In this document: positions 342-12,666 of the stretch, one piece after another
Layout: each line of letters opens with the position of its first letter
How positions within the stretch are numbered: the first letter of the stretch is position 1
DNA from: Acinetobacter geminorum
Lineage (GTDB): Bacteria > Pseudomonadota > Gammaproteobacteria > Pseudomonadales > Moraxellaceae
Direction of reading: 5' to 3'
Assembly: GCF_013009345.1 (NCBI RefSeq)
Contig: NZ_JABELE010000007.1
Coordinates: 186,038-198,703, forward strand
Length of the DNA: 12,666 bases
Position numbers and translations under genes: made by a program
The notes under the pieces: generated by a model
What the model saw: the letters and a program-made list of their open reading frames with translations, nothing else
The model's database searches: none
Told to the model about the DNA's origin: nothing

Positions 342-383
342 AAAAAATAAGCTGATTGGGAAACCTCCAGCAGCTTATTTTTT
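342..383 (-). terminator. Probable bidirectional intrinsic terminator downstream of adeC
   Basis: AAAAAATAAGCTG (342-354) and CAGCTTATTTTTT (371-383) are exact reverse complements, so each strand has a stem followed by a T-run. The structure starts 21 nt after the adeC stop. The stem is AT-rich and the loop is 16 nt, so confidence is only moderate. Confidence 0.55.
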
Positions 384-403
384 AAGATCGAAATGAAATT
401 ATA

Positions 404-1801
404 TTAGCCTTTAGATATTCCTCCCCCTAAAGCTTTATAGAGTTCAATCAGGTTATTTAGTTTCATTTGCTCAAGTGCAAGTAAACCCTGCTGTGCTGCA
501 TAAGCAGAACGTTGGGCATCTAAAACCGTAAAATAACTATCAACGCCCGCTCTGTAATGTGCCATCGATAGTTTATATGTTGCAGATGTGGCTGAAACTA
601 AACGACGTTGAGCACCTAATCGTTCACCAATATGTGCATGTGTAGCAAGCGCATCATTAACTTCACGGAAAGCTGATTGAATGGCTTTTTCATATTTAGC
701 TAAAGCAATTTTCTGGTCAGTTTCTGCAATTTTAATATTCGTTTTTCTTGTTCCCAAATCAAAAATTGGTAGATCGATACTAGGTCCAATTGACCATGCA
801 AAATTACCAGTTTTAAATAAATCTTTAAGTTCAGTCGATGCATAGCCTGTAGAACCAGTAAGGCTTATGGTCGGAAACATACGTGCTTTCGCAGCCCCAA
901 TACTGGCCCCAGCTGCACGCAACTCATATTCGGCAACTTTAAGATCTGGTCGATGATTTAATAAATCACTTGGCAAACCTGCTGCAAAGTTTTTCTCAAT
1001 GGTAATATTTTGAATAGAATGATCCGGAAGTAAATTCTGCGGAATAGAATAACCTGCTAACAAATCCAGTAAATTTTTTGCCTGTTGGATTTGAGTTTTA
1101 TAAGTTGCAACATCATTTCGAGCAGTCTCTACCGAAATTTGCGCTTGTTTTAATGGAACTTCACTATCAATACCGACATCAAAGCGCTTTTTATTAAGAT
1201 GATAAGAATCAAGTTGAGCTTTTAAAGTCTGCTCTGCAAGGTTTAAATTAGCTTGAGCAAAGGCATAATTTAACCAAACTTGTGTGATATTGCTGATTAA
1301 ACTAATTTGAACTGCTTCGCTCGCACTTTGTGTTGCCAGATAATTATTTAATGCCACATCTTTTAAATTTTTTACACGGCCCCAAAAGTCTAATTCATAT
1401 GCAGTCATTCCTAAACCCACCTGAAATGTTGAAGCTGGGTTATTAGGATTAATAGATGGATTCACTTGCCGTACTGCACTCCCCATTACACCGATAGTAG
1501 GTAACTGGTTATTTTTAGTGATTTGGTATTCTTGCTGTACACGTTCAATATTGAGCGTAGCAGTACGCAAATCACGATTATTATTTAAACTGATTTCAAT
1601 CACCTGTAATAATTTCGGATCAGAAATAAACTCTTTATAACTTTTTTCTGCAATCGTTTTTCCAGAATGATTTTGACTAAAATTTTGAGGAATATGAGAT
1701 GTGATTGCAGGCTGTGGCGCTTGCATATTGACACATGCAACTAAAGTGACTGAGAGTGTAGAAAGAATGAGTCCACGAGATACGATTGCCGATTTAGACA
1801 T
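404..1801 (-). CDS. adeC: Outer-membrane channel of the AdeABC RND efflux pump (OprM/TolC-family lipoprotein), 465 aa
   Basis: I recognise the translation as AdeC. It has a signal peptide with lipobox LVA|C. The ORF track starts at a TTG (1813). I prefer the ATG at 1801 (MSKSAIV...) because GGAGA lies 6 nt upstream of it. Confidence 0.93.
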   Translation of the reverse strand: MSKSAIVSRGLILSTLSVTLVACVNMQAPQPAITSHIPQNFSQNHSGKTIAEKSYKEFISDPKLLQVIEISLNNNRDLRTATLNIERVQQEYQITKNNQLPTIGVMGSAVRQVNPSINPNNPASTFQVGLGMTAYELDFWGRVKNLKDVALNNYLATQSASEAVQISLISNITQVWLNYAFAQANLNLAEQTLKAQLDSYHLNKKRFDVGIDSEVPLKQAQISVETARNDVATYKTQIQQAKNLLDLLAGYSIPQNLLPDHSIQNITIEKNFAAGLPSDLLNHRPDLKVAEYELRAAGASIGAAKARMFPTISLTGSTGYASTELKDLFKTGNFAWSIGPSIDLPIFDLGTRKTNIKIAETDQKIALAKYEKAIQSAFREVNDALATHAHIGERLGAQRRLVSATSATYKLSMAHYRAGVDSYFTVLDAQRSAYAAQQGLLALEQMKLNNLIELYKALGGGISKG

Positions 1802-1877
1802 AGTATTCTCCAAATAAAGTAAATTTTGTGCATATGAAGCATCAGAGGAAATTAAGTATTCCCCTGATGCATTGAAC

Positions 1878-4800
1878 TTAGGATGAGATTTTTTTCTTAG
1901 AGGAAAATAGCTTTTCTACTGCACCCAAAATGAAGATAAAAAACACGGGAACAAAGAAAATAGCCAGTATGGTTGCTGAAATCATGCCACCAAAAACCCC
2001 TGTACCTAAAGCATGTTGAGTTTCTGAACTTGCACCTGTTGCAATAACCAAAGGAATTACACCACACGTAAATGCAAGAGAAGTCATTAGAATTGGCCGT
2101 AAGCGAAGTTTGGCTGCGGCAACAGTGGCTTCAATCAAACTCATGCCTTCCTCTTTTAGCATTTTCGCAAATTCAACAATCAAAATTGCATTCTTTGCCG
2201 ATAGACCAATAATGGTAATTAGCCCGATTTTGAAGAACACATCATTCATTAAACCTCTAGACATAATGGCAATGATTGCTCCAAAAATACCGAGTGGCAC
2301 AACCAACATCACAGAAAGTGGAATTGCCCAGCTTTCATAGAGTGCAGCCAATACGAGGAAAACAACGAGCATTGATAAACCAAGTAAAAAGGCCATTTGT
2401 GATTCAGACTGTTTTTCCTGTAAGGAAATACCAGTCCACTCGTAGCCAATACCTTTCGGTAATTTAGCAATCAGTTGTTCCATTTCACGCATTGCTTCAC
2501 CTGATGACGTATCGAAGTTAGGAATACCAGCAATACTCAAAGATGGTCGTCCGTTGTAACGATTATATTGTTGTGGTGCTTTATTCCATTGAGGTGTTAC
2601 TACTTCTGATAACGAAACTAATTGACCACTCGAACCCATCACTTTTAAGTTCAAGATATCTTTGAGTTGCATACGTGATTTAGCCTCAACTTGTACAATC
2701 ACTTGTTGCATACGCCCTTGATTAGGGAAGTCATTGATATACATTGAACCCATCGATGTAGAAATGATGTCTGAAACATCAGAAAACTTAACACCGAGCG
2801 CACTAAGCTTTTCGCGGTCAATTTTTAAAGAAATATTGTCACCTTGTGGTAGCCCTTCATTCCAAACCATATAGAACTTCTTATTTTTGGCTGCCATTGC
2901 CATAAGTTCATCTTGAGCAGCCAGTAAAGCAGGCATACCTAAGTTAGCACGGTCTTGTAAACGTAAACTGAAGCCTGAAAAAGTACCCAACTCATCAATA
3001 GAAGGTGGTAATACGGCCATAGTTTCACCTTCCGTACTGTTTGCCATTGAGGTATTAACGGCGCTTGTCATCTTAGATGCAGAGCTAGTCCGCTCTTTGA
3101 AGTCTTTAAGTGTCGTAAAAGCCACAGCTACGTTTTGTCCTGCGCCACTAAAACCCCATCCCAAAATGGTGGTATTACTTTTTACATCGGGATTATCTTT
3201 CAAATTATTTTCAAATTGATTGACTACATTCCGAGTACGCTCTGCGGTTGCATCTGAAGGTAGCTGGAACGAAGTCATGAACCAACCTTGATCTTCCTCT
3301 GGCATAAATGCTGTTGGCCAATATTTCATTCCGGCAAAGGTAATACCGGTAATTACTAAAAAGATCACCATCATTGGAACTGTATGTTTGATGATTTTAA
3401 GCAGCATCAATTCATACTTTTTAGTGACTTTATCGAAACTACGGTCAAACCATGCAAAGAAGCCCTTCTTCTGATGATGCCCATCGATTGGCTTTAAAAT
3501 CGTGGCACAAAGTGCCGGTGTTAAAATAAGTGCCAATAACGCTGAAAATAAAATAGATACCGACATGGTCAAGGTAAACTGTTTATAGATTACCCCTACA
3601 GAACCACTCGCAAATGCCATAGGTAAAAATACTGCAGCCAAGACCAGCGTAATACCAATAATCGGGCTGGTAATCTCTTTCATTGCTTTAGAGGTTGCAT
3701 CTTTAGGACTTAATCCTTCAGTCGCCATAATCCTTTCTACGTTTTCAACAACGACAATCGCATCGTCGACAATAATCCCGATGGCAAGCACCATACCGAA
3801 CATGGTGAGTACGTTAATTGAAAAGCCGGCAAGCAACATCACGGTAAAAGTACCGAGTAAGGCAATAGGCGCCACAATTGCTGGAATAAGCGTATAGCGG
3901 ACATTGTGTAAAAATAGATACATCACAATGAAAACCAGAACCATGGCTTCAAGTAATGTATGAATTACCTTTTCAATTGAAATTTTGACAAACGGCGCGG
4001 TGTCGTAAGGAATACTAAACTCCATGCCTTCCGGTAAATTTAGCTTCAATTCTTCAATTTTTGCTCGAACACCTTCGGCAGTTTTCACGGCGTTAGCTCC
4101 CGGGCTTAATTGAATTGCAGCCGCGGTAGCAGGCTTACCATTTTCCAAAATGGCAAAGTTATATGCTTGTGAACCTATTTCTACATTGGCAACATCAGAT
4201 AATTTAATTACGCTACCGTTAGTTTTACTTTTTAAGCTGATATTTTTAAATTGCTCAAGACTAGACAATTGCCCTTGAGCCGACAACGGAATAGTAATGA
4301 GCTGGCCTTTTTCAGCTGGTAAATCACCAAGTCTGCCGGGTGCAATTTCGACATTATTTTCACGAATGGCATTATTCACATCACTAATCGATAAACCGTA
4401 AGAAACAAGCTTATTCGGGTCGACCCAAATACGCATAGCTTTCTCGGCACCGAAAGATTGAACCTTCCCTACACCTTCGACACGTTTTAGCTCTTCTATA
4501 ACATTTCGAACCAAATAATCACTCAAATCAACTTCGGAATATTGATTATTTGGAGAGTTAATCCCGACCAGCATTAAAAATCCGGACGATGAAGCCTCAA
4601 CCTGTAAACCTTGCTGACGTACAACTTGCGGTAAGCGAGCTTCTACAGCCTTGATTTTATTTTGAACGTCAACCTGAGCCATTTCCACATCTGTGCCTGG
4701 TTTAAACGTAGCCGTAATCTCTGCTGTACCGGAGGTATCTGTTGTCGCACTATAGTAGAGTAGATTTTTTACACCCGATAATTCGCGCTCAATTAAGGTT

Positions 4801-4988
4801 ACAACGCTATCGTTAATGGTTTTAGCTGTAGCACCAGGATAAGTCGCACTAATATTCACCTGTGGCGGGGCCACACTTGGAAAACGTGCAATTGGCAGTT
4901 TAGGAATACTCAGCAATCCAAATATAATAATAAAGATCGCGATAACCCAAGCAAAAACGGGGCGACGAATAAAAAATTGTGACATCAT
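1878..4988 (-). CDS. adeB: RND inner-membrane multidrug transporter of the AdeABC pump, 1036 aa
   Basis: The full-length translation is recognisable as Acinetobacter AdeB (AcrB family, 12-TM architecture with large periplasmic loops). Its ATG overlaps the adeA stop in ATGA (4985-4988). Confidence 0.97.
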   Translation of the reverse strand: MMSQFFIRRPVFAWVIAIFIIIFGLLSIPKLPIARFPSVAPPQVNISATYPGATAKTINDSVVTLIERELSGVKNLLYYSATTDTSGTAEITATFKPGTDVEMAQVDVQNKIKAVEARLPQVVRQQGLQVEASSSGFLMLVGINSPNNQYSEVDLSDYLVRNVIEELKRVEGVGKVQSFGAEKAMRIWVDPNKLVSYGLSISDVNNAIRENNVEIAPGRLGDLPAEKGQLITIPLSAQGQLSSLEQFKNISLKSKTNGSVIKLSDVANVEIGSQAYNFAILENGKPATAAAIQLSPGANAVKTAEGVRAKIEELKLNLPEGMEFSIPYDTAPFVKISIEKVIHTLLEAMVLVFIVMYLFLHNVRYTLIPAIVAPIALLGTFTVMLLAGFSINVLTMFGMVLAIGIIVDDAIVVVENVERIMATEGLSPKDATSKAMKEITSPIIGITLVLAAVFLPMAFASGSVGVIYKQFTLTMSVSILFSALLALILTPALCATILKPIDGHHQKKGFFAWFDRSFDKVTKKYELMLLKIIKHTVPMMVIFLVITGITFAGMKYWPTAFMPEEDQGWFMTSFQLPSDATAERTRNVVNQFENNLKDNPDVKSNTTILGWGFSGAGQNVAVAFTTLKDFKERTSSASKMTSAVNTSMANSTEGETMAVLPPSIDELGTFSGFSLRLQDRANLGMPALLAAQDELMAMAAKNKKFYMVWNEGLPQGDNISLKIDREKLSALGVKFSDVSDIISTSMGSMYINDFPNQGRMQQVIVQVEAKSRMQLKDILNLKVMGSSGQLVSLSEVVTPQWNKAPQQYNRYNGRPSLSIAGIPNFDTSSGEAMREMEQLIAKLPKGIGYEWTGISLQEKQSESQMAFLLGLSMLVVFLVLAALYESWAIPLSVMLVVPLGIFGAIIAIMSRGLMNDVFFKIGLITIIGLSAKNAILIVEFAKMLKEEGMSLIEATVAAAKLRLRPILMTSLAFTCGVIPLVIATGASSETQHALGTGVFGGMISATILAIFFVPVFFIFILGAVEKLFSSKKKISS

Positions 4989-6175
4989 GGTTGCGCCCCC
5001 TCAGTTATAGAAGCTTTCTTTTCTATACTTGAAGCATGACTGACCACTGCTGAAGCTTTCCATGCTGCCAATGCCAATTTTTGATTTGGCTTAATACGAT
5101 CAATACCCTCAACAACGACTTTGTCACCCACCTTCAAGCCTTTATTGGCAATATAGTACTGTTCATACTGCTGTCCGATTTCAATAGGACGAACATCAGC
5201 TGACCCTTTAGCGTTGATGACATATACCTGAGGCTCACCATTAATATTGCGTTGAATGGCTTGAGCTGGAACTAATAAAGCTTGTGGGATAGAAGCTCGA
5301 TCAATATTAACTCGTACATACATACCCGGGAGTAGTTTTCTCTCGGTATTGTTTACTTCAATACGGAACGTGACATCACCTGTTTCCGGGTCAACATTAA
5401 TATCTTCAAACAACATTTTTGCTGTGACGTTATAAGGTTGCCCGTGACTATTGGTAATACGAACGGTTTTGTCACTATTTGCTGATAATTCTCCGCTTTG
5501 TAGCGCAGCTTGTAAGCGCTCATACTCACTAACTGATTGCTTTACATCGACATAGACTTTATCAATCTGTTGGATTGTGGCCATGGTATTGGTATCGCCT
5601 TGACCAACCAATGCACCTTCAGTGACAAAAGACTGCCCAATACGCCCTGAGATTGGTGCCCGAACAGTTGCATATTGCAAATTCAAATTTTGTCTAGCAA
5701 GCAATGCTTTCATTTGAGCAACATCAGCTTGGGCCTGACGATATTGAGCTTGAGCATTACTTACTTCCTGCTTGCTAATCGCATTACTTGGTAAAAGCTG
5801 CTCATAACGCTCTAATTGCACTTTTAATCGTGTCACCTCAGCTTCAGCTTTATTGAGTGAGGCTCTATTGCTATTTACATCTGCCTCAAAAGTTTCTGAG
5901 TTAATTTTATATAGAGCTTGCCCTGCTCTAACTTCACTACCTTGCTTAAATAGAACTCTTTCAATAATCCCTCCGACTTGCGGACGTATTTCAGCCGTAC
6001 GGAACGCCTGTACCCGTGCAGGAAGATTTTCACTGAAATTAACCGATTGCGGTTGAATACTTAATACACTGACTTTAGCTGGTGGTGGTTCAGCTTGAGC
6101 CGCTTCTTTTGAACCACACCCCTGTAATACCAGCCCAATAGATAAAAATAAAGGAAGTAAAAGATGCTTTTGCAT
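4985..6175 (-). CDS. adeA: Periplasmic membrane-fusion adaptor lipoprotein of the AdeABC pump, 396 aa
   Basis: The translation is recognisable as AdeA (MQKHLLLPLFLSIGL.., lipobox LQG|C, HlyD/AcrA-like coiled coil and beta-barrel). The ORF track begins at a TTG (6184), and the ATG at 6175 is the likely start. Confidence 0.95.
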   Translation of the reverse strand: MQKHLLLPLFLSIGLVLQGCGSKEAAQAEPPPAKVSVLSIQPQSVNFSENLPARVQAFRTAEIRPQVGGIIERVLFKQGSEVRAGQALYKINSETFEADVNSNRASLNKAEAEVTRLKVQLERYEQLLPSNAISKQEVSNAQAQYRQAQADVAQMKALLARQNLNLQYATVRAPISGRIGQSFVTEGALVGQGDTNTMATIQQIDKVYVDVKQSVSEYERLQAALQSGELSANSDKTVRITNSHGQPYNVTAKMLFEDINVDPETGDVTFRIEVNNTERKLLPGMYVRVNIDRASIPQALLVPAQAIQRNINGEPQVYVINAKGSADVRPIEIGQQYEQYYIANKGLKVGDKVVVEGIDRIKPNQKLALAAWKASAVVSHASSIEKKASITEGAQP

Positions 6176-6242
6176 ACTGTCCAAACCTAGTGAGTTTTTG
6201 ATGCTGACATTATTTTTGATGAGTGTGTAGGGATAATCACTA

Positions 6243-6263
6243 AAGTGTGGAGTAAGTGTGGAG
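6243..6263 (+). promoter_or_regulatory. AdeR operator: 10-bp direct repeat AAGTGTGGAG-T-AAGTGTGGAG in the adeA-adeR intercistronic spacer
   Basis: Two exact copies (6243-6252 and 6254-6263) are separated by one T. This matches the published AdeR-binding direct repeat located between adeR and adeABC. Confidence 0.85.
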
Positions 6264-6320
6264 AAATACCGATAATTTAGCGTATGATGAGTTGAAGCAC
6301 TTTGTATAGCCAGATTTTCT

Positions 6321-7064
6321 ATGTTTGATCATTCTTTTTCTTTTGATTACCAACATAAAGTTATCCTCGTTGTGGAAGATGACTACGACATTGGCGACAT
6401 TATTGAAAATTATTTAAAACGTGAAGGAATGACGGTTATTCGTGCCATGAATGGAAAGCAAGCAATTGAATTGCACGCTAGCCAACCTATCGATTTAATC
6501 TTACTTGATATTAAATTACCCGAGCTCAACGGCTGGGACGTGTTAAATAAAATACGTCAGAAAGCTCAAACTCCCGTGATTATGCTGACGGCGCTAGATC
6601 AAGATATTGATAAGGTTATGGCATTACGCATAGGTGCAGATGACTTTGTGGTTAAGCCTTTTAACCCAAATGAAGTCGTTGCTAGAGTTCAGGCAGTGCT
6701 AAGAAGAACTCAATTTGCAAACAAAACATCCACTAAAAATAAAATCTACAAAAACATTGAAATTGATACAGACACTCATAGTGTTTATCTTCACTCCGAA
6801 AATAAAAAAATATTGCTTAATCTGACGCTGACTGAATATAAAATTATTTCCTTCATGATTGACCAGCCCCACAAGGTATTTACACGTGGTGAGCTCATGA
6901 ATCATTGTATGAATGATAGTGATGCATTAGAACGAACCGTAGATAGCCATGTGAGTAAGCTGAGAAAAAAACTAGAAGAACAAGGCATATTTCAAATGTT
7001 AGTTAATGTGCGTGGCGTGGGATATAGGCTAGATAATCCCCTAGCTATAAAAGATGATGCCTAA
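6321..7064 (+). CDS. adeR: OmpR/PhoB-family response regulator of adeABC, 247 aa
   Basis: The translation is recognisable as AdeR, with a receiver domain (phospho-acceptor D63 in LLLD63IKLP) and a winged-helix C-terminus. Residues D20, A91 and P116, sites of reported up-regulating substitutions, are wild-type here. Confidence 0.95.
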   Translation: MFDHSFSFDYQHKVILVVEDDYDIGDIIENYLKREGMTVIRAMNGKQAIELHASQPIDLILLDIKLPELNGWDVLNKIRQKAQTPVIMLTALDQDIDKVMALRIGADDFVVKPFNPNEVVARVQAVLRRTQFANKTSTKNKIYKNIEIDTDTHSVYLHSENKKILLNLTLTEYKIISFMIDQPHKVFTRGELMNHCMNDSDALERTVDSHVSKLRKKLEEQGIFQMLVNVRGVGYRLDNPLAIKDDA

Positions 7065-7094
7065 ATAATATTAAAAATAGCTAGGGAATATTTT

Positions 7095-8165
7095 ATGAAA
7101 AGTAAGTTAGGAATTAGTAAGCAACTTTTTATTGCCTTAACTATTGTAAATTTAAGCGTTACGCTATTTTCTGTAGTACTGGGTTATGTCATTTATAACT
7201 ATGCGATTGAAAAAGGCTGGATTTCTTTAAGCTCACTTCAAGAAGATTGGACCACTTTTCATTTTGTAGATTGGATTTGGTTGGCTACTGTTATTTTCAG
7301 TGGCTGTATGATTTCATTAGTGATCGGCATGCACCTCGCAAAGCGTTTTATTGTGCCAATTAACTTCTTAGCCGAAGCAGCAAAAAAAATTAGTCAAGGC
7401 GACCTCTCTGCTAGAGCTTACGATAACCGAATTCACTCGGCTGAAATGTCGGAGCTTTTATATAATTTTAATGATATGGCTCAAAAGCTAGAGGTTTCTG
7501 TTCAAAATGCACAAGTATGGAATGCTGCCATCGCTCATGAGTTAAGAACTCCAATCACAATTTTACAAGGCCGCCTGCAAGGCATAATTGATGGCGTTTT
7601 TAAACCTGATGAAGCTCTATTTAAAAGCCTTCTAAGTCAGGTTGAAGGCTTATCTCATTTGGTTGAGGACTTACGAACATTAAGTTTAGTAGAGAACCAG
7701 CAACTCAGATTAAATTATGAGTTATTTGACTCTAAGCCCGTAGTTGAAAAGGTTCTTAAAGCATTTGAAGATCGCTTGGAACAAGCTAACCTCGTACCAG
7801 AACTTAATCTTACTACGACTCCTGTTTTGAGTGACCGCCGTCGTATTAAGCAAGTTTTGATTGCTTTAATTGATAATGCTATTCGTTATTCAAATGCGGG
7901 CAAACTTAAAATTTCATCGGAATTGGTATCACAAAACTGGATATTAAAAATTGAGGACGAAGGTCCCGGCATTGCAACCGAGTTTCAAGATGATTTATTT
8001 AAACCCTTTTTTAGATTAGAAGAATCAAGAAATAAAGAATTTGGTGGCACAGGTTTAGGACTTGCTGTTGTACATGCAATTATTGTGGCACTGAAAGGTA
8101 CTATTCAATATAGCAATCAAGGCTCAAGAAGTATTTTCACCATAAAAATTCCAATGGAGAATTAA
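7095..8165 (+). CDS. adeS: Sensor histidine kinase of the AdeRS system, 356 aa
   Basis: The translation is recognisable as AdeS. It has two N-terminal TM segments, HAMP, the H-box AIAH148ELRTP, and N/G boxes (DNAIRYS, EDEGPGI, GGTGLGL). AGGGA lies 7 nt upstream of the ATG. Confidence 0.95.
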   Translation: MKSKLGISKQLFIALTIVNLSVTLFSVVLGYVIYNYAIEKGWISLSSLQEDWTTFHFVDWIWLATVIFSGCMISLVIGMHLAKRFIVPINFLAEAAKKISQGDLSARAYDNRIHSAEMSELLYNFNDMAQKLEVSVQNAQVWNAAIAHELRTPITILQGRLQGIIDGVFKPDEALFKSLLSQVEGLSHLVEDLRTLSLVENQQLRLNYELFDSKPVVEKVLKAFEDRLEQANLVPELNLTTTPVLSDRRRIKQVLIALIDNAIRYSNAGKLKISSELVSQNWILKIEDEGPGIATEFQDDLFKPFFRLEESRNKEFGGTGLGLAVVHAIIVALKGTIQYSNQGSRSIFTIKIPMEN

Positions 8166-8173
8166 GAATAATT

Positions 8174-8359
8174 TTACTTTTGAAATTTTTCTTCCTCCTC
8201 TTTTATCCTTCTACGAATTTCTTCTCGCCATTTTGTGGCATTTTCTTGTTGTTTATTTAATAGGACACCTAACATATAAGCTGTAACCGCTGCGCCAATT
8301 AAAGCAATACCCGTTTCATAAATAATATCTATAACAAACTCTAGCATTCCCTCCGACAA
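8174..8359 (-). CDS. Hypothetical small single-pass membrane protein (57-61 aa) with a highly charged C-terminal tail
   Basis: The ORF has one hydrophobic helix (GIALIGAAVTAYMLGVLL) followed by KWREEIRRRIKEEEEKFQK. The track start is TTG (8359). An in-frame ATG at 8347 follows GGAGGGA but with very short spacing. The stop lies only 8 nt from the adeS stop, in convergent orientation. I recognise no homology. Confidence 0.35.
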   Translation of the reverse strand: MSEGMLEFVIDIIYETGIALIGAAVTAYMLGVLLNKQQENATKWREEIRRRIKEEEEKFQK

Positions 8360-8404
8360 GAAATCTAATGAGCCTGAAAATTTAAGGAATAATGCATTAG
8401 CTAC

Positions 8405-8764
8405 TATAGATTGATCATTGAAGCGAATAAGAATGTGAACAATGAGCCTGCTTTAAAAAACTCTTTGTTTAATAATTCCTATGTTAAGTTAGAAACAGCA
8501 CGGAGCCTTTTAAATGAAGAATATCCAGACTGGATTCAAGGCTTAGATAAAAACGGTTATGACTATGGTGACCTCAATACAATATGTTGGATGACCGTAT
8601 TTATGGAAAACTACGTAAATAAAGTTGAAGGTCAATACAAAAGCCAACTTAAGGATGAAACCGTAAATGATGTTCATAGCCTATACGGTGAAAGACAAAA
8701 AATTATTAAGTTACGCGACAGTAAAGATAAAACTGCTCGAAACTTTGTAGAAGTATGTGAATAG
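8405..8764 (+). repeat. Direct repeat copy 1 (360 bp, 350/360 identical to 12307-12666)
   Basis: My base-by-base hand alignment found 10 substitutions and no indels. The unit period is 3902 bp. Confidence 0.9.
8411..8764 (+). pseudogene. 5'-truncated orphan copy of the 162-aa lipoprotein (putative immunity) gene, lacking the signal peptide and lipobox
   Basis: It corresponds to residues 46-162 of the 12178-12666 product, with 4 aa differences. The 'start' is a TTG that encodes an internal Leu in the full-length copy. The frame is closed by TAA at 8390-8392, there is no ATG or GTG in between, and there is no SD. Confidence 0.6.
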
Positions 8765-8775
8765 ATCATTGTTAT

Positions 8776-8803
8776 AAAAGCCCTGAATGTTCAGGGCTTT
8801 TTT
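8776..8803 (+). terminator. Rho-independent terminator (AAAAGCCCTGA-ATGT-TCAGGGCTTTTTT)
   Basis: A GC-rich 7-bp core stem (8780-8786 / 8791-8797) is extended by A/T pairs. It has a 4-nt loop and a run of six T. Confidence 0.75.
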
Positions 8804-9149
8804 AATTTTTTTACGTAAAAAGAAATATCTACTTTGTACCTCAACCCATCCCACTAAAAAATACCTCCAAAACCATCTCATCAACTTCACCCGAGCTTAT
8901 GGGCCACATTCTATATTTCACGGTAGTTGTATATGCATTTGGATAGTTATTTCTAATTTTAAACAAGCTTTTTATAATAAATCGCCGTGCCGTCATAGTT
9001 CCCGTTTGAACTTAATGCAAAGCCTGAGACCGTCTCCAATCGGGTGCATTCAATTTAGACACAAACAATTAAGCTAATAATATATTGATTTCCAATTTCA
9101 ATAGTTAGAGAATCACGCTTAATTATAAGTTACTACAATAGAGTTCTAT

Positions 9150-10025
9150 ATGCTCGTTAAGAAGAATAAGGCTTTGTTTTACATCTTCCCTTTGGTTTTA
9201 GTTATCGGTTTCTATGTCCTTTTTCGTGTATCTATTCTTCCTTATATTTATACCAAGCAAGCACAGCATCAACTTTTAACAACAAACAATCAAACAACTG
9301 AAATTTATTGGAAAGAGCCAGACCTCTTAGCTAATAAAAAGTATCCAGCAATTATCTTTTTACATGGCATTCAAAAAGATAAACAAGGTGCAAAAGCCTT
9401 TGTACGCTCTGGCTTGTTAAATGAATATAGTAAAAAGAACATTTTCAGTGTTGCTGTATCTATGAGTGGATATGGTGAGTCCTCTGGGAAATCAGATTTT
9501 TGTGGTAAAGCCTCACAATATAATCTTGTAAAAGCCATTAATTTTGCTCGTTCACAACCTCATGTTGACCCAAATAAAGTTGCGGTGATTGGTATTAGTT
9601 GTGGTGCGTCTATAGCAAATGTTGTAGCTAACTCTGGAAAGATAAATGCTTTGGTTCTGGTATCTGGGTTTTATGATTTTAAAGGTATGTATACTCAGTG
9701 GAGTTCTAACACTAGAACGCTACCGTCAAATGTAATGGAAGAAATAAATGAATCTATTGCTGCATCAAAAAATATAGAAAATGCGTCGGCATCTAGATCA
9801 TCGCTACCAATTTCGTCTCACTATCCATCTACTCTTATATTAGTTGGTACTAAAGACCCAATTGTTGACCCGAAGCAAAGTACTCAGCTACATCAATTAC
9901 TTGATAGTAAAGGTATTCCGAATACCTTAGCACTGATTCAAGATGCTAAGCATCCTGTGCCTGCTAATGTGTGGAAAACTAAAAGTGATTCATTTTTAGA
10001 AAATACTTTGAATATAAAAAATTAA
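9150..10025 (+). CDS. Membrane-anchored alpha/beta-fold serine hydrolase (dienelactone-hydrolase / S9-peptidase-like esterase), 291 aa
   Basis: There is an N-terminal hydrophobic anchor (ALFYIFPLVLVIGFYVLF) and a nucleophile elbow G-I-S150-C-G (Ser codon at 9597-9599). Acid and His candidates are GTKD236P and AKH268P, in the canonical Ser-Asp-His order. An IIFLHG oxyanion-region motif is also present. Confidence 0.85.
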   Translation: MLVKKNKALFYIFPLVLVIGFYVLFRVSILPYIYTKQAQHQLLTTNNQTTEIYWKEPDLLANKKYPAIIFLHGIQKDKQGAKAFVRSGLLNEYSKKNIFSVAVSMSGYGESSGKSDFCGKASQYNLVKAINFARSQPHVDPNKVAVIGISCGASIANVVANSGKINALVLVSGFYDFKGMYTQWSSNTRTLPSNVMEEINESIAASKNIENASASRSSLPISSHYPSTLILVGTKDPIVDPKQSTQLHQLLDSKGIPNTLALIQDAKHPVPANVWKTKSDSFLENTLNIKN

Positions 10026-10142
10026 GAGATAAATGGGCTGCTCTGTAGATACCTTATATCAACCCTATGGCGGTACTGTTCGACCAAACCCACCTCATAC
10101 TAAATTTTCTTTTACCTTAAATTCAGCAGCAAGACGTAAATC

Positions 10143-10214
10143 ATGAATAGAAAATTTATCAGCACTATTGTTCTCATTTCTGTGTTTGGAGTTGCTGCTT
10201 GTGGTAAAGCTTAA
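10143..10214 (+). pseudogene. Detached lipoprotein signal peptide (MNRKFISTIVLISVFGVAA|CGKA) ending at an in-frame TAA. It is the 5' part of the following gene.
   Basis: It shows the classic n-h-c signal peptide plus lipobox VAAC. It is in the same frame as 10224-10835, separated only by TAA (10212-10214) and three sense codons (N-E-Q). Confidence 0.55.
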
Positions 10215-10223
10215 AATGAACAG

Positions 10224-10835
10224 ATGGATACTTCAAAAAACAGTTCTAAAAACGTAAAAACTGAACTATCAGCAAGTGATAAAGCGATTTTAGATAGATA
10301 TGACTCTATCACAAATGAAGTTGTGACCTCAGGTGAAAATGAAAAGATAAAGCAAACTTTAGAGCCTTTAATTCCTGAAATAAAGAAAGTTACTGCTAAG
10401 AAACAAAGAGAAATGGCATTAATGAATATTTATATGTTGTCAGGAATGTACAAAAAAGCTTATGAGCTAAATGAGCAACAGATCAAAGATAAACCCTTGC
10501 CTCAACGGATAATGTTTAGATGTACATTGCTTAAAAAACTAAATGAGGCCAAAGTAAAAATTCAACAGTGTCACGAAGCTTCAGCGCAACTCATACAAAC
10601 CGAATTAAGTAAATCATCTAACAAAAATGATCCTCATTACAGAGACGCCGAATTTGTATATTTAACTGAAATGTATAAAGCTGGTCACACTGAATATAAA
10701 GCTAAAATACAGAAATTTATTGATGAGACTAAAGATGTCGCATCAAAAGATAGATATAAGTCTTTGTATGATGTAGATATTGAGTCATTTTATGGTACTG
10801 ATTCACCAAATTATGTACCAGAATCATTAAAGTAA
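10224..10835 (+). CDS. Hypothetical helical (TPR-like?) protein, 203 aa. It is probably the mature part of a lipoprotein separated from its signal peptide by a nonsense codon.
   Basis: This is a long ORF with Lys/Glu-rich composition that is predicted to be helical. No convincing SD precedes the ATG at 10224. The upstream in-frame signal-peptide ORF is listed separately. A terminator follows. Confidence 0.6.
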   Translation: MDTSKNSSKNVKTELSASDKAILDRYDSITNEVVTSGENEKIKQTLEPLIPEIKKVTAKKQREMALMNIYMLSGMYKKAYELNEQQIKDKPLPQRIMFRCTLLKKLNEAKVKIQQCHEASAQLIQTELSKSSNKNDPHYRDAEFVYLTEMYKAGHTEYKAKIQKFIDETKDVASKDRYKSLYDVDIESFYGTDSPNYVPESLK

Positions 10836-10844
10836 AACTTAAAT

Positions 10845-10872
10845 AAAAAGCCCTGAATACTCAGGGCTTTTT
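10845..10872 (+). terminator. Rho-independent terminator (AAAAAGCCCTGA-ATAC-TCAGGGCTTTTT)
   Basis: It has the same GCCCTGA/TCAGGGC stem as the terminator at 8776-8803, differing in only two loop bases, and is followed by a run of five T. Confidence 0.75.
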
Positions 10873-11011
10873 AAATTGCTTTACACAGATCGAGATATTC
10901 ACATTCGTATTGAACGTATATGCTGTACATCCTGATAAATAAAACTATACAGCACTGTCTACCCCTCTTTGCTATCATTCCGGCACTTCATGAAAATAAG
11001 AAGGAAGAGTT

Positions 11012-11557
11012 TTGGCGACACCATATATAACTATAGGCTGCCCAACTTCAGGTGGTGGTCAAGTAATTTCTGGGAACAGTATGTTTCTAGTTGACGGTAT
11101 TCCCGTTGCCTGTGTCGGTGATAAAGCAACCTGCCCAACTCATAAAGTTGTTGCGACAATTGTCTCAGGTGATCCATACATGCAAATTTTTGGTAAATCA
11201 GCTGCGCGTGTGAATGATTCACTTTCATGCGGTTGCAAATTATTGCCTCAACAAAATTTAGTTGTGCAGGATAATGGCGGTGGTTCGTCTCAAAGTGCCA
11301 CTACTACTAATACAGCTGCTCAAGATAGCTTTGTAGAAGATAAGTCAAAAGAATATGGAATTCAGTTCCAGTTAAAGGATGAGAAGACACAAAAGATCTT
11401 TAGTGAAATTCCTTATTCAATTATTTATAAGAAGGATGGAAAGGTGGAAACCGGTTGGACCGATAAAGAAGGTAAAACGCATGTTATCAATGCTGCCACA
11501 CCTGATGAGGTGGAGTTTCAGACGATTGATGCTTCTAAACCGCTACCACCGCTTTAA
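11012..11557 (+). CDS. PAAR-domain protein (T6SS spike-tip family) with a Gly/Ser/Thr linker and a ~75-aa beta-rich C-terminal extension, 181 aa
   Basis: The N-terminal ~86 aa carry PAAR-family signatures (GIPVACVGDKATCPTH, GKSAARVNDSLSCGC). The start is TTG, with AGGAAG 4 nt upstream. The first in-frame ATG (M24) would cut into the PAAR fold. The linker is GGGSSQSATTTNTAAQ. Confidence 0.85.
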   Translation: MATPYITIGCPTSGGGQVISGNSMFLVDGIPVACVGDKATCPTHKVVATIVSGDPYMQIFGKSAARVNDSLSCGCKLLPQQNLVVQDNGGGSSQSATTTNTAAQDSFVEDKSKEYGIQFQLKDEKTQKIFSEIPYSIIYKKDGKVETGWTDKEGKTHVINAATPDEVEFQTIDASKPLPPL

Positions 11558-11566
11558 GGATTGAAA

Positions 11567-12181
11567 ATGGCACAAGATAAAGTATTTTCTCCGACACTCA
11601 TTCCATCTTTGGATAACGAGGTAAAAGTCTGTCATGCAGATGAGTTACTGGACCCTCTCTTATGTAATAGCATTGTTAAAATCCTAAACTACCATACAAC
11701 AGTACCCTACACTTTCATGATGAATCAGGCACAATGGGATTGGGTAAAACAGCATTATCCATTTGAGCATGATCTAGCAATCCGTTTTGGTCTTGAATTT
11801 GATTTACGTCAATTTTCAGATGAAGTGTTAGAACGCTATTCATTCCATACGATGATGTATTTGAAGTTCACCCTTTATGCTCAAAAACACTCTAGGAATA
11901 AAGGCGCCGAGATGATTACAGAGCTTGCAAAAGATACTTTTAAAGCTCGTATGGCAATTGCAAAACAAAACTTTGGTGAAATAATAGATTTGGCATTATC
12001 TAATGCGAGTAAGCCTGTTCTTGCAGCTAATGCATTAGCTACGTATACCAACAATGGACCATATGGTATTAACGAATATATGTATAAAAACGTCTTTGGT
12101 CGTACTTACGATCAAGCCACTGTTTCATTATATATTCAGAAATACCACTACACTCCACCTAATAACCGCTTCTCACTATGA
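11567..12181 (+). CDS. Hypothetical 204-aa protein: candidate T6SS cargo effector (toxin) of unknown family
   Basis: AGGA lies 6 nt before the ATG at 11567, whereas the track start TTG at 11561 sits inside that spacer. The gene begins 9 nt after the PAAR stop, and its stop overlaps the next gene's ATG (ATGA at 12178-12181). There is no signal peptide, no TM segment and no motif I recognise. The CDS call is solid, but the function is inferred from context only. Confidence 0.75.
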   Translation: MAQDKVFSPTLIPSLDNEVKVCHADELLDPLLCNSIVKILNYHTTVPYTFMMNQAQWDWVKQHYPFEHDLAIRFGLEFDLRQFSDEVLERYSFHTMMYLKFTLYAQKHSRNKGAEMITELAKDTFKARMAIAKQNFGEIIDLALSNASKPVLAANALATYTNNGPYGINEYMYKNVFGRTYDQATVSLYIQKYHYTPPNNRFSL

Positions 12182-12666
12182 AAATTACATTAATATCAAT
12201 ATTGATACTTTCCAGCTTATTCCTAACTTCTTGTAAGGCTTCGACAGATAAAGAAGACATTGATAACTATGTGAAAGTAGATCTGAAAAATTATGCTACT
12301 GACAATTATAGATTGATCATTGAAGCAAATAAGAATGTGAACAATGAGCCTGCTTTAAAAAACTCGTTGTTTAATAATTCCTATGTTAAGTTAGAAACAG
12401 CACGGAGCCTTTTAAATGATGAATATCCAGACTGGATTCAAGGCTTAGATAAAAACGGTTATGACTATGGTGACCTCAACACAATATGTTGGATGACGGT
12501 ATTCATGGAAAACTACGTAAATAAAGTTGAAGATCCATACAAAAGCCAACTTAAGGATGAAACCTTAAATGATGTTCACAGCCTATACGGTGAAAGACAA
12601 AAAATTATTAAGTTACGCGACAGTAAAGATAAAACTGCTCGAAACTTTGTAGAAGTATGTGAATAG
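12178..12666 (+). CDS. Exported lipoprotein, 162 aa: candidate cognate immunity protein
   Basis: It has a signal peptide MKITLISILILSSLFLTS|C19 with lipobox LTSC (Cys codon at 12232-12234) and two further Cys. It is translationally coupled to the preceding gene. A diverged truncated copy lies at 8405-8764. Its stop codon is the last triplet of the window. Confidence 0.85.
   Translation: MKITLISILILSSLFLTSCKASTDKEDIDNYVKVDLKNYATDNYRLIIEANKNVNNEPALKNSLFNNSYVKLETARSLLNDEYPDWIQGLDKNGYDYGDLNTICWMTVFMENYVNKVEDPYKSQLKDETLNDVHSLYGERQKIIKLRDSKDKTARNFVEVCE
12307..12666 (+). repeat. Direct repeat copy 2 (partner of 8405-8764)
   Basis: See copy 1. The match is 350/360 identical. Six of the differences are synonymous and four are non-synonymous in the lipoprotein frame. 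Confidence 0.9.

Follow-up and report, generated by a model that had tools for sequence, protein, structure and literature searches.

Copy 1, a 360-bp gene fragment next to adeS at positions 8405-8764 of the DNA analysed here, is probably the dead 3' relic of a once-complete PAAR/206-aa/lipoprotein cassette that was located downstream of adeRS, where A. baumannii still carries one. The window, i.e., the whole stretch that we analysed, comprises 12,666 nucleotides from Acinetobacter geminorum. Its left part holds adeC, adeB and adeA on the minus strand. These are followed by adeR and adeS on the plus strand and then by a small minus-strand ORF (8174-8359), the relic and a terminator. Copy 1 lies on the plus strand and corresponds to codons 44-162 and the stop codon of a gene for a 162-aa lipoprotein, a putative immunity protein. 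An intact version of this gene (12178-12666, plus strand) closes the window, its stop codon being the final triplet.

The earlier note on this DNA described an ungapped 360-bp repeat with 10 substitutions, of which 6 are synonymous and 4 non-synonymous. Our base-by-base comparison of 8405-8764 with 12307-12666 (copy 2) agrees exactly. There are 360 ungapped positions and 10 substitutions, the synonymous ones at codons 50, 63, 101, 107, 109 and 134 and the non-synonymous ones being E81D, G119D, Q120P and V130L. Copy 1 is thus 97% identical to codons 44-162 of the putative immunity gene and, as had been read before, begins in frame at codon 44, so that it is without the signal peptide and the lipobox. 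Comparison of the window with itself, proposed earlier as a check, recovers the direct pair (8405-8704 and 12307-12606, 97%, spacing 3902). The true right end of the repeat is a terminator hairpin, t, found by a terminator scan at 8776-8802 on the plus strand. In the contigs L001-L003, which extend past the end of the window, the full repeat runs through t to 8802 and measures 398 nt with the same 10 mismatches (97.5% identity). Beyond the hairpin, the tails on the two sides are merely loosely alike. The longest identical blocks between the repeats are 125, 59, 53 and 38 nt.

These contigs were obtained by an exact look-up of the 162-aa protein, which gave four NCBI contigs. L001-L003 have the arrangement of the window from adeB onward at 99.96-99.98% identity, and L004 holds the PAAR cassette only. 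The sole differences between the window and L001 or L002 (~10.5 and 9.6 kb aligned) are at 8683 and 8694, both in copy 1 and 11 nt apart; L003 has two further differences outside copy 1. The pair at 8683 and 8694 could be one multi-base event or a mapping or assembly effect at the repeat in the L001-L003 assemblies. Gene conversion from copy 2 to copy 1 is rejected as the source of the two L001 SNPs, since the window has the ancestral state.

Homology to copy 2 ends sharply at 8405, and the sequence to the left of this position belongs to a different gene. In the A. baumannii loci L029 and L030, adeS is followed by a 137-aa minus-strand ORF whose 3' portion is homologous to window 8166 to ~8388. 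This remnant (8166-8388, minus strand) reads as a 57/61-aa ORF at 8174-8359 and forms the left side of the junction. It is identical in L015, a related contig, with 0 differences in 239 nt. The alignment of L001 3019-6213 with L030 2-3223 passes adeS and continues into the 137-aa ORF, where the base-level alignment stops near window 8388. Within the next 16 bases of ambiguous origin (8389-8404), homology passes over to the lipoprotein gene at its codon 44. Compared with L030, ~6.9 kb is absent (L030 3224-10129), and this segment contains adeT, an AraC regulator, a hydrolase, two SDR genes, the PAAR gene, the 204-aa gene and lipoprotein codons 1-43. Since homology switches directly from the 137-aa ORF to codon 44 and ~6.9 kb is missing in between, the alignments identify the 5' edge of copy 1 as an apparent illegitimate deletion junction with the truncated 137-aa ORF next to adeS. 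The weak similarity upstream to ~8374, previously suspected to be an extension of the repeat, is not one: 8166 to ~8388 is instead homologous to the post-adeS sequence of L029 and L030.

The junction bases themselves allow more than one reading. The 15-mer at 8390-8404 (TAATGCATTAGCTAC) matches the 206-aa gene exactly at 12028-12042, and the score of 8363-8404 aligned to the 206-aa gene is reached by 12 of 1000 shuffles. The stretch upstream of the 15-mer is not above chance in its likeness to that gene (335 of 2000 shuffles). Alternatively, TTAGCTAC extends the homology to the 137-aa ORF with a 6-nt indel. A derivation of 8363-8404 from the 206-aa gene by decay is mostly rejected, because 8363-8388 belong to the 137-aa ORF remnant. 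The 15-mer may be filler DNA or a chance match, and its identity to the 206-aa gene may point to a junction of greater complexity.

The right side of copy 1 is in keeping with its being part of a former cassette. The gene order in A. baumannii is adeRS-(137aa)-adeT-AraC-hydrolase-SDR-SDR-PAAR181-204aa-162aa-t-233aa-t', after which come ANT or GNAT, TetR, HD_4, OEP and GH3. This far flank (ANT, TetR, HD_4, OEP, GH3) is common to A. baumannii and the window lineage (L001). In the window, copy 1 and t, and then a 230-aa lipoprotein gene (10143-10835, plus strand) and the hairpin t' (10845-10871, plus strand, 93% like t), are collinear with imm162-t-imm233-t' of A. baumannii. The exception is a 1.26-kb insertion at 8803-10066, which is absent from the A. 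baumannii arrangement. It holds a fragment like the 3' end of the locus's TetR-family gene (8841-8899, minus strand; L001 6664-6722 versus L026 18366-18424, 80.6%), a 3' fragment of a GNAT acetyltransferase gene (8908-9029, minus strand; L001 6731-6852 versus L026 12951-13071, 89%) and a gene for a 291-aa alpha/beta hydrolase (9150-10025, plus strand) with Pfam Peptidase_S9 and Abhydrolase matches. The TetR and GNAT fragments sit between t and the hydrolase, and intact versions of both are found further downstream in related genomes. Three metagenome loci (L039, L041 and L042) have an intact cassette with the collinear equivalent of 8765-9021 after it. Because of these collinear flanks in A. 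baumannii and in the metagenome loci, we consider copy 1 to stand in the native 3' context of a full cassette. As this native downstream flank has been kept, copy 1 would be the relic of a cassette that was once complete.

This synteny indicates that one illegitimate deletion of ~6.9 kb (relative to L030) fused the 3' part of the 137-aa ORF to codon 44 of the lipoprotein gene. The deletion would have taken adeT, the AraC, hydrolase and SDR genes, the PAAR gene, the 206-aa gene and the lipoprotein signal peptide. The relic would have kept its downstream context of t, the TetR and GNAT fragments, the 230-aa gene and t'.

Downstream of t' (from ~10899 on), the intact cassette represents an additional copy, 95.7% identical to that of A. 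baumannii. It consists of a PAAR protein of 181 aa with a C-terminal extension (11012-11557, plus strand), a putative cargo effector of 206 aa without a recognisable domain (11561-12181, plus strand; 204 aa from the ATG at 11567) and the intact 162-aa lipoprotein. The terminator that follows copy 2 (L001 10490-10575, hairpin at 10502) combines a t-type hairpin with a t'-type tail, and the tail is exactly like the one preceding ANT in A. baumannii. Such a hybrid implies past recombination between hairpins that would have removed a 233-aa-type gene from the distal unit. In all, the locus holds three near-identical terminator hairpins, including those at 8776-8802 and 10845-10871.

Comparison of the adeS-flanking region across related contigs, which had been proposed as a means to find, among other variants, alternative effector alleles, gives an alternative cassette in L015. 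Over window 370-11282 this contig shows 98.4% identity; it shares the junction, the relic and the hydrolase with the window, and its 230-aa gene is intact. The same slot is occupied, at 12598-14094, by the gene for a 271-aa PAAR protein whose C-terminal extension is longer and, directly after it, the gene for a 224-aa lipoprotein. Thus, cassette exchange does take place at this locus, as the earlier note supposed, since L015 keeps the relic and carries a different PAAR cassette. A second copy of the GNAT fragment is found in L015 at 14233-14345, so that direct repeats bracket the L015 unit too. Between the window and L015, divergence is 0.3-1.4% in the ade genes, the hydrolase and the 230-aa gene, 0% in the 137-aa ORF remnant, 3.3% in the relic, 4.9% in the adjacent junk, 9% from t' to PAAR and 14% in the PAAR N-terminal domain. 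It rises from <1% to 9-14% immediately after t', so the exchangeable slot begins at t' and not within the immunity gene. A breakpoint inside the PAAR gene at 11282 was also considered and is rejected, since the per-feature divergence puts it just after t'. The right end of the L015 cassette is a t'-type tail, and ~90 nt upstream of PAAR are common to all cassettes. The slot would therefore be limited on the left by t' and the conserved PAAR upstream region and on the right by the t'-type tail, with none of these limits in the immunity gene.

These boundaries bear on the origin given in the earlier note, where copy 1 was taken for the remnant of another allele that stayed behind after an effector/immunity swap with the crossover in the conserved 3' part of the immunity gene. 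Admittedly, cassettes are exchanged here, the copies differ by 2.8% and mostly at synonymous sites, as alleles would, and V. cholerae (PMC5361080) and the vgrG loci of A. baumannii (PMC6833914) offer known examples of displaced immunity genes. However, a crossover within the gene would yield a hybrid full-length gene and not a fragment attached to a truncated, unrelated ORF. In addition, the observed swap boundaries (t', the PAAR upstream region and the t' tail) are outside the immunity gene, and the relic lies upstream of the current cassette with three other features between them. Since copy 1 begins at a deletion junction, we do not retain this explanation, which now appears quite unlikely.

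We favor, rather, a deletion relic accompanied by a second cassette, the latter being placed, by synteny, in a slot where strains exchange whole cassettes. The two copies could have arisen by an old tandem or segmental duplication that was trimmed by deletions, or by re-acquisition of the same cassette type. In the simplest history, such a duplication would have come first, and the 6.9-kb deletion, a t-by-t' deletion within the distal unit and decay by point changes would have come after it. A cassette of this type re-acquired in the distal slot would account for the data equally well. A Campbell-type integration has to be weighed as well. Here a circular or tandem donor with the hydrolase, the 230-aa gene, the PAAR gene, the 206-aa gene and the 162-aa gene would have crossed once into a pre-existing relic, making the flanking direct repeats. 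This would explain why the repeats bracket the 3.9-kb unit exactly and why the unit is circularly permuted with respect to L005 (hydrolase, GNAT fragment, PAAR) and A. baumannii (162-aa, 233-aa). It is nevertheless unlikely, because L015 has the relic, the hydrolase and the 230-aa gene at >99% but another cassette, so these are better seen as ancestral parts, with exchange confined to the slot downstream of t'. Also, no integrase or circular form is seen.

The relic is not young. The earlier argument against a recent in-situ duplication is borne out by L015, which has the same relic with the same junction, and by relic-specific bases that are common to all relics. At repeat positions 174, 198 and 230, every relic copy has a base that is present in no full-length allele. 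At position 192, a synonymous site, every relic copy again has a common base, and the site varies among full-length alleles. Because the relic-specific bases are common to all relic copies, the relic must be older than the strain split. It is extremely improbable that the pair arose by recent tandem duplication in situ or is an artefact of assembly. The direct orientation of the repeats, their high identity and the breaks of short-read assemblies within them would fit such an origin, but ten differences are fixed between the copies. The relic is also found in at least four independent assemblies and in a lineage diverged by 1.6%, which share the relic-specific bases.

The three changes that are unique to the relics and shared by them comprise 2 synonymous and 1 non-synonymous, and the changes private to single relic copies comprise 3 synonymous, 4 non-synonymous and 1 frameshift. 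Though these numbers are small, this is the pattern expected if constraint ended at truncation. The frameshift is that of the L015 relic (protein P0007), due to a 1-nt deletion at the equivalent of 8706, and copy 1 of L001-L003 has an R>K change. Each of the two copies in the window has the other as its closest relative (10 differences), and at repeat position 51 they have a common base that is found in no other allele. Both observations are compatible with paralogy or gene conversion. The relic and the adjacent junk (8405-9000) are 3.3-4.9% diverged from L015, while the neighbouring non-coding DNA is identical. Simple neutral decay fails to explain this excess, which suggests a separate recombination history for the patch.

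As to whether copy 1 is a gene, an in-frame TAA is present at 8390-8392, four codons upstream of 8405. Copy 1 has no ATG, the in-frame starts near its 5' end being just TTG 8411 and GTG 8435, and by inspection no SD-like sequence is seen ahead of either. This agrees with what had been noted from the letters. There is no promoter-like site immediately upstream of copy 1. An Rfam search of the window gave no family, searches of Pfam, NCBIfam and PADLOC gave no match for copy 1, and exact look-up of its 109-aa GTG-start product found nothing on record. Copy 1 is shorter than all full-length homologues (161-162 aa), and the gene that it abuts is itself truncated and unrelated to it. No effector gene lies beside copy 1; the closest 206-aa gene, 2.8 kb downstream, is paired with an intact partner of its own, and no cognate cassette for the relic is seen in the L015 contig. 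With codons 1-43 absent and the reading frame broken in L015, the description of copy 1 as a truncated, non-functional remnant without signal peptide and lipobox is upheld. The label of orphan immunity gene, on the other hand, overstates the case, since copy 1 is a headless fragment with no intact ORF and intact orphans of the family exist elsewhere, in L006 and L037. Because of the frameshift in one lineage and the lack of an ATG or SD-like sequence, copy 1 is best read as a pseudogene, the product of ordinary gene decay in a recombination-prone putative toxin/immunity locus, and not as a working orphan immunity gene.

Another possibility that we considered is expression of copy 1, with TTG 8411 or GTG 8435 as its start, as a signal-less cytoplasmic immunity protein or decoy, or a role as a regulatory RNA acting on copy 2. 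In favor of this, the window has an open 117-aa ORF here, products of 109 and 112 aa are annotated by gene callers, and copy 1 is co-oriented with adeS, with just a weak terminator between them. Since only this weak hairpin (8227-8239) intervenes, read-through from adeS into copy 1 is possible. Even so, expression of a functional product is very unlikely, given that the start region has neither an ATG nor a visible SD-like sequence, that the frame is lost in L015, that L001-L003 have an R>K change, and that the private changes look neutral and Rfam has no hit. In the reading we prefer, the relic would be neither translated nor functional. It would merely provide 398 nt of homology for rare RecA-dependent loss or amplification of the 3.9-kb unit.

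The earlier note expected the repeats to make the segment between them prone to deletion or amplification. This is plausible as a capacity, because the longest identical block is 125 nt and the repeats are long enough for RecA-dependent recombination, but no such variant occurs in the related contigs. No deletion or amplification product between the repeats is found among L001-L004 and L015-L024, a small search space, and the junction 24-mer is absent from the JGI metagenomes scanned. A crossover between the repeats would remove the hydrolase, the PAAR gene, the 206-aa gene and the start of the intact lipoprotein gene, and all that remained would be a headless fragment. The sole deletion found, of 1266 bp in L002 (window 9197-10462), does not use the repeat, and its ends show no evident repeat of their own. 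It takes away most of the hydrolase together with the 5' portion of the 230-aa gene. L002 also has an IS256-family (Transposase_mut) element inserted after copy 2, at 9862-11070. The Logan short-read contigs with adeRS (L019-L024) end ~108 nt past the small ORF, ~50 nt into copy 1, which is the expected assembly break in the 38-nt identical block at 8426-8463. A more active role can be imagined, in which the relic and the hairpins t and t' are standing homology anchors to capture, amplify or shed PAAR cassettes. We regard this as decidedly unlikely. If true, it would mean a hairpin-bounded slot next to adeRS in which the fragment is kept for promoting cassette turnover and not by chance.

By its gene context, the cassette itself would encode a putative effector-immunity pair. 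It is headed by a PAAR-domain gene (PF05488, E = 1e-21, residues 9-78), and the start of the 162-aa gene overlaps the stop of the 206-aa gene (ATGA at 12178-12181). The 162-aa family forms 8 clusters at 90% identity and occurs in ten species-representative contigs, nine from Acinetobacter and one a 2.5-kb MAG contig labelled Longicatena. The full-length members from these ten loci are 161-162 aa long, and all have the lipobox. The 206-aa family has 23 representatives among 1.84 billion proteins, and all of them are stand-alone, with no fusions to carrier proteins. The order PAAR / X / lipoprotein is kept in a distant homologue, L031, where 828-3225 encodes a PAAR protein of 184 aa, then a homologue (236 aa) of the 206-aa protein and, in tandem, lipoproteins of 167 and 161 aa. 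These lipoproteins have a weak likeness to the 162-aa family (hhalign E = 8e-4 and 0.05). In two further loci, L006 3480-4093 (A. lactucae NRRL B-41902) and L037 6227-7228 (metagenome), the 162-aa gene is intact and the PAAR gene and most of the 206-aa gene are deleted; a 42-aa fusion ORF in L006 retains only the last ~30 codons of the 206-aa gene. L006 and L037 would be genuine full-length orphans of the 162-aa family, with the pattern typical of toxin loss and immunity retention.

No recognisable toxin domain or fold is found in the putative effector. The 206-aa protein has no match in Pfam, NCBIfam, PADLOC or PDB, and the 162-aa protein has none in Pfam, NCBIfam or PADLOC. A PDB sequence search with the 162-aa profile gave nothing meaningful, and the AF2 models are unusable (pLDDT 44 for the 206-aa and 43 for the 162-aa protein). 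We thus infer the putative toxin (206-aa) and immunity (162-aa) roles from gene context, because of the upstream PAAR gene, the ATGA overlap, the lipobox, the linkage kept in L031 and the immunity-only loci L006 and L037. The 230-aa lipoprotein gene in the window is interrupted just after the lipobox by a nonsense codon (TCA>TAA, 10212-10214); it is intact in L015, L007, L006, L025 and A. baumannii. Its product has distant homology (E = 1e-12) to the 224-aa lipoprotein encoded right after PAAR271 in L015, and for this reason the gene probably represents a second orphan immunity gene that has decayed, from a different family.

Orphan immunity genes of the T6SS have been described in V. cholerae, where they are intact, lie 3' of the current module and are thought to be protective (Kirchberger et al. 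2017, PMC5361080). As in those arrays, traces of an earlier module are found here beside the current one, at a T6SS auxiliary locus that exchanges modules. The 230-aa-type lipoprotein gene after the 162-aa gene in A. baumannii fits the orphan-array pattern of V. cholerae. Copy 1 differs from the V. cholerae orphans in being headless, 5' of the module, made by deletion and decaying. In A. baumannii, PAAR proteins with extended C-termini have been reported, with no effector adjoining any PAAR gene (Lewis et al. 2019, PMC6833914), and in the TagP/PAAR-C study of ATCC 17978 the genes neighbouring TagP are uncharacterised (PMC11348943). The locus resembles the vgrG/PAAR loci of these studies (PMC6833914, PMC11348943) in belonging to the same genus and in having PAAR genes of 172-280 aa outside the main T6SS locus. 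It also resembles the vgrG loci (PMC6833914) in that non-cognate immunity genes lie beside effector loci. It differs in that the PAAR / 206-aa / lipoprotein module is uncharacterised. A further comparison is with the displaced 3' ends of rhs and CDI genes which, as far as they are described by way of PMC5361080 (Jackson 2009, Koskiniemi 2014), are toxin-tip and immunity pairs that recombination can reactivate. To the extent of that description, the two cases have in common direct repeats of partial genes beside a complete toxin module and the ability to recombine. They differ in that recombination between the copies here would delete the putative toxin module and leave a headless immunity fragment.

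Copy 1 is best classed as a relic pseudogene within a T6SS cassette locus and is ordinary in kind; as a pseudogene, the fragment itself is of little importance. There is a practical consequence, in that the 398-nt repeat breaks short-read assemblies just downstream of adeS. The wider interest is in the locus. The adeRS-adeABC region is clinically important, adeRS being a resistance regulator, and the PAAR / 206-aa / 162-aa module was not recognised as an effector-immunity pair in the 2019 survey of A. baumannii T6SS effectors (PMC6833914). At base resolution, the locus clearly illustrates the duplication, exchange and erosion of PAAR-linked cassettes near adeRS-adeABC in the A. calcoaceticus-baumannii complex.
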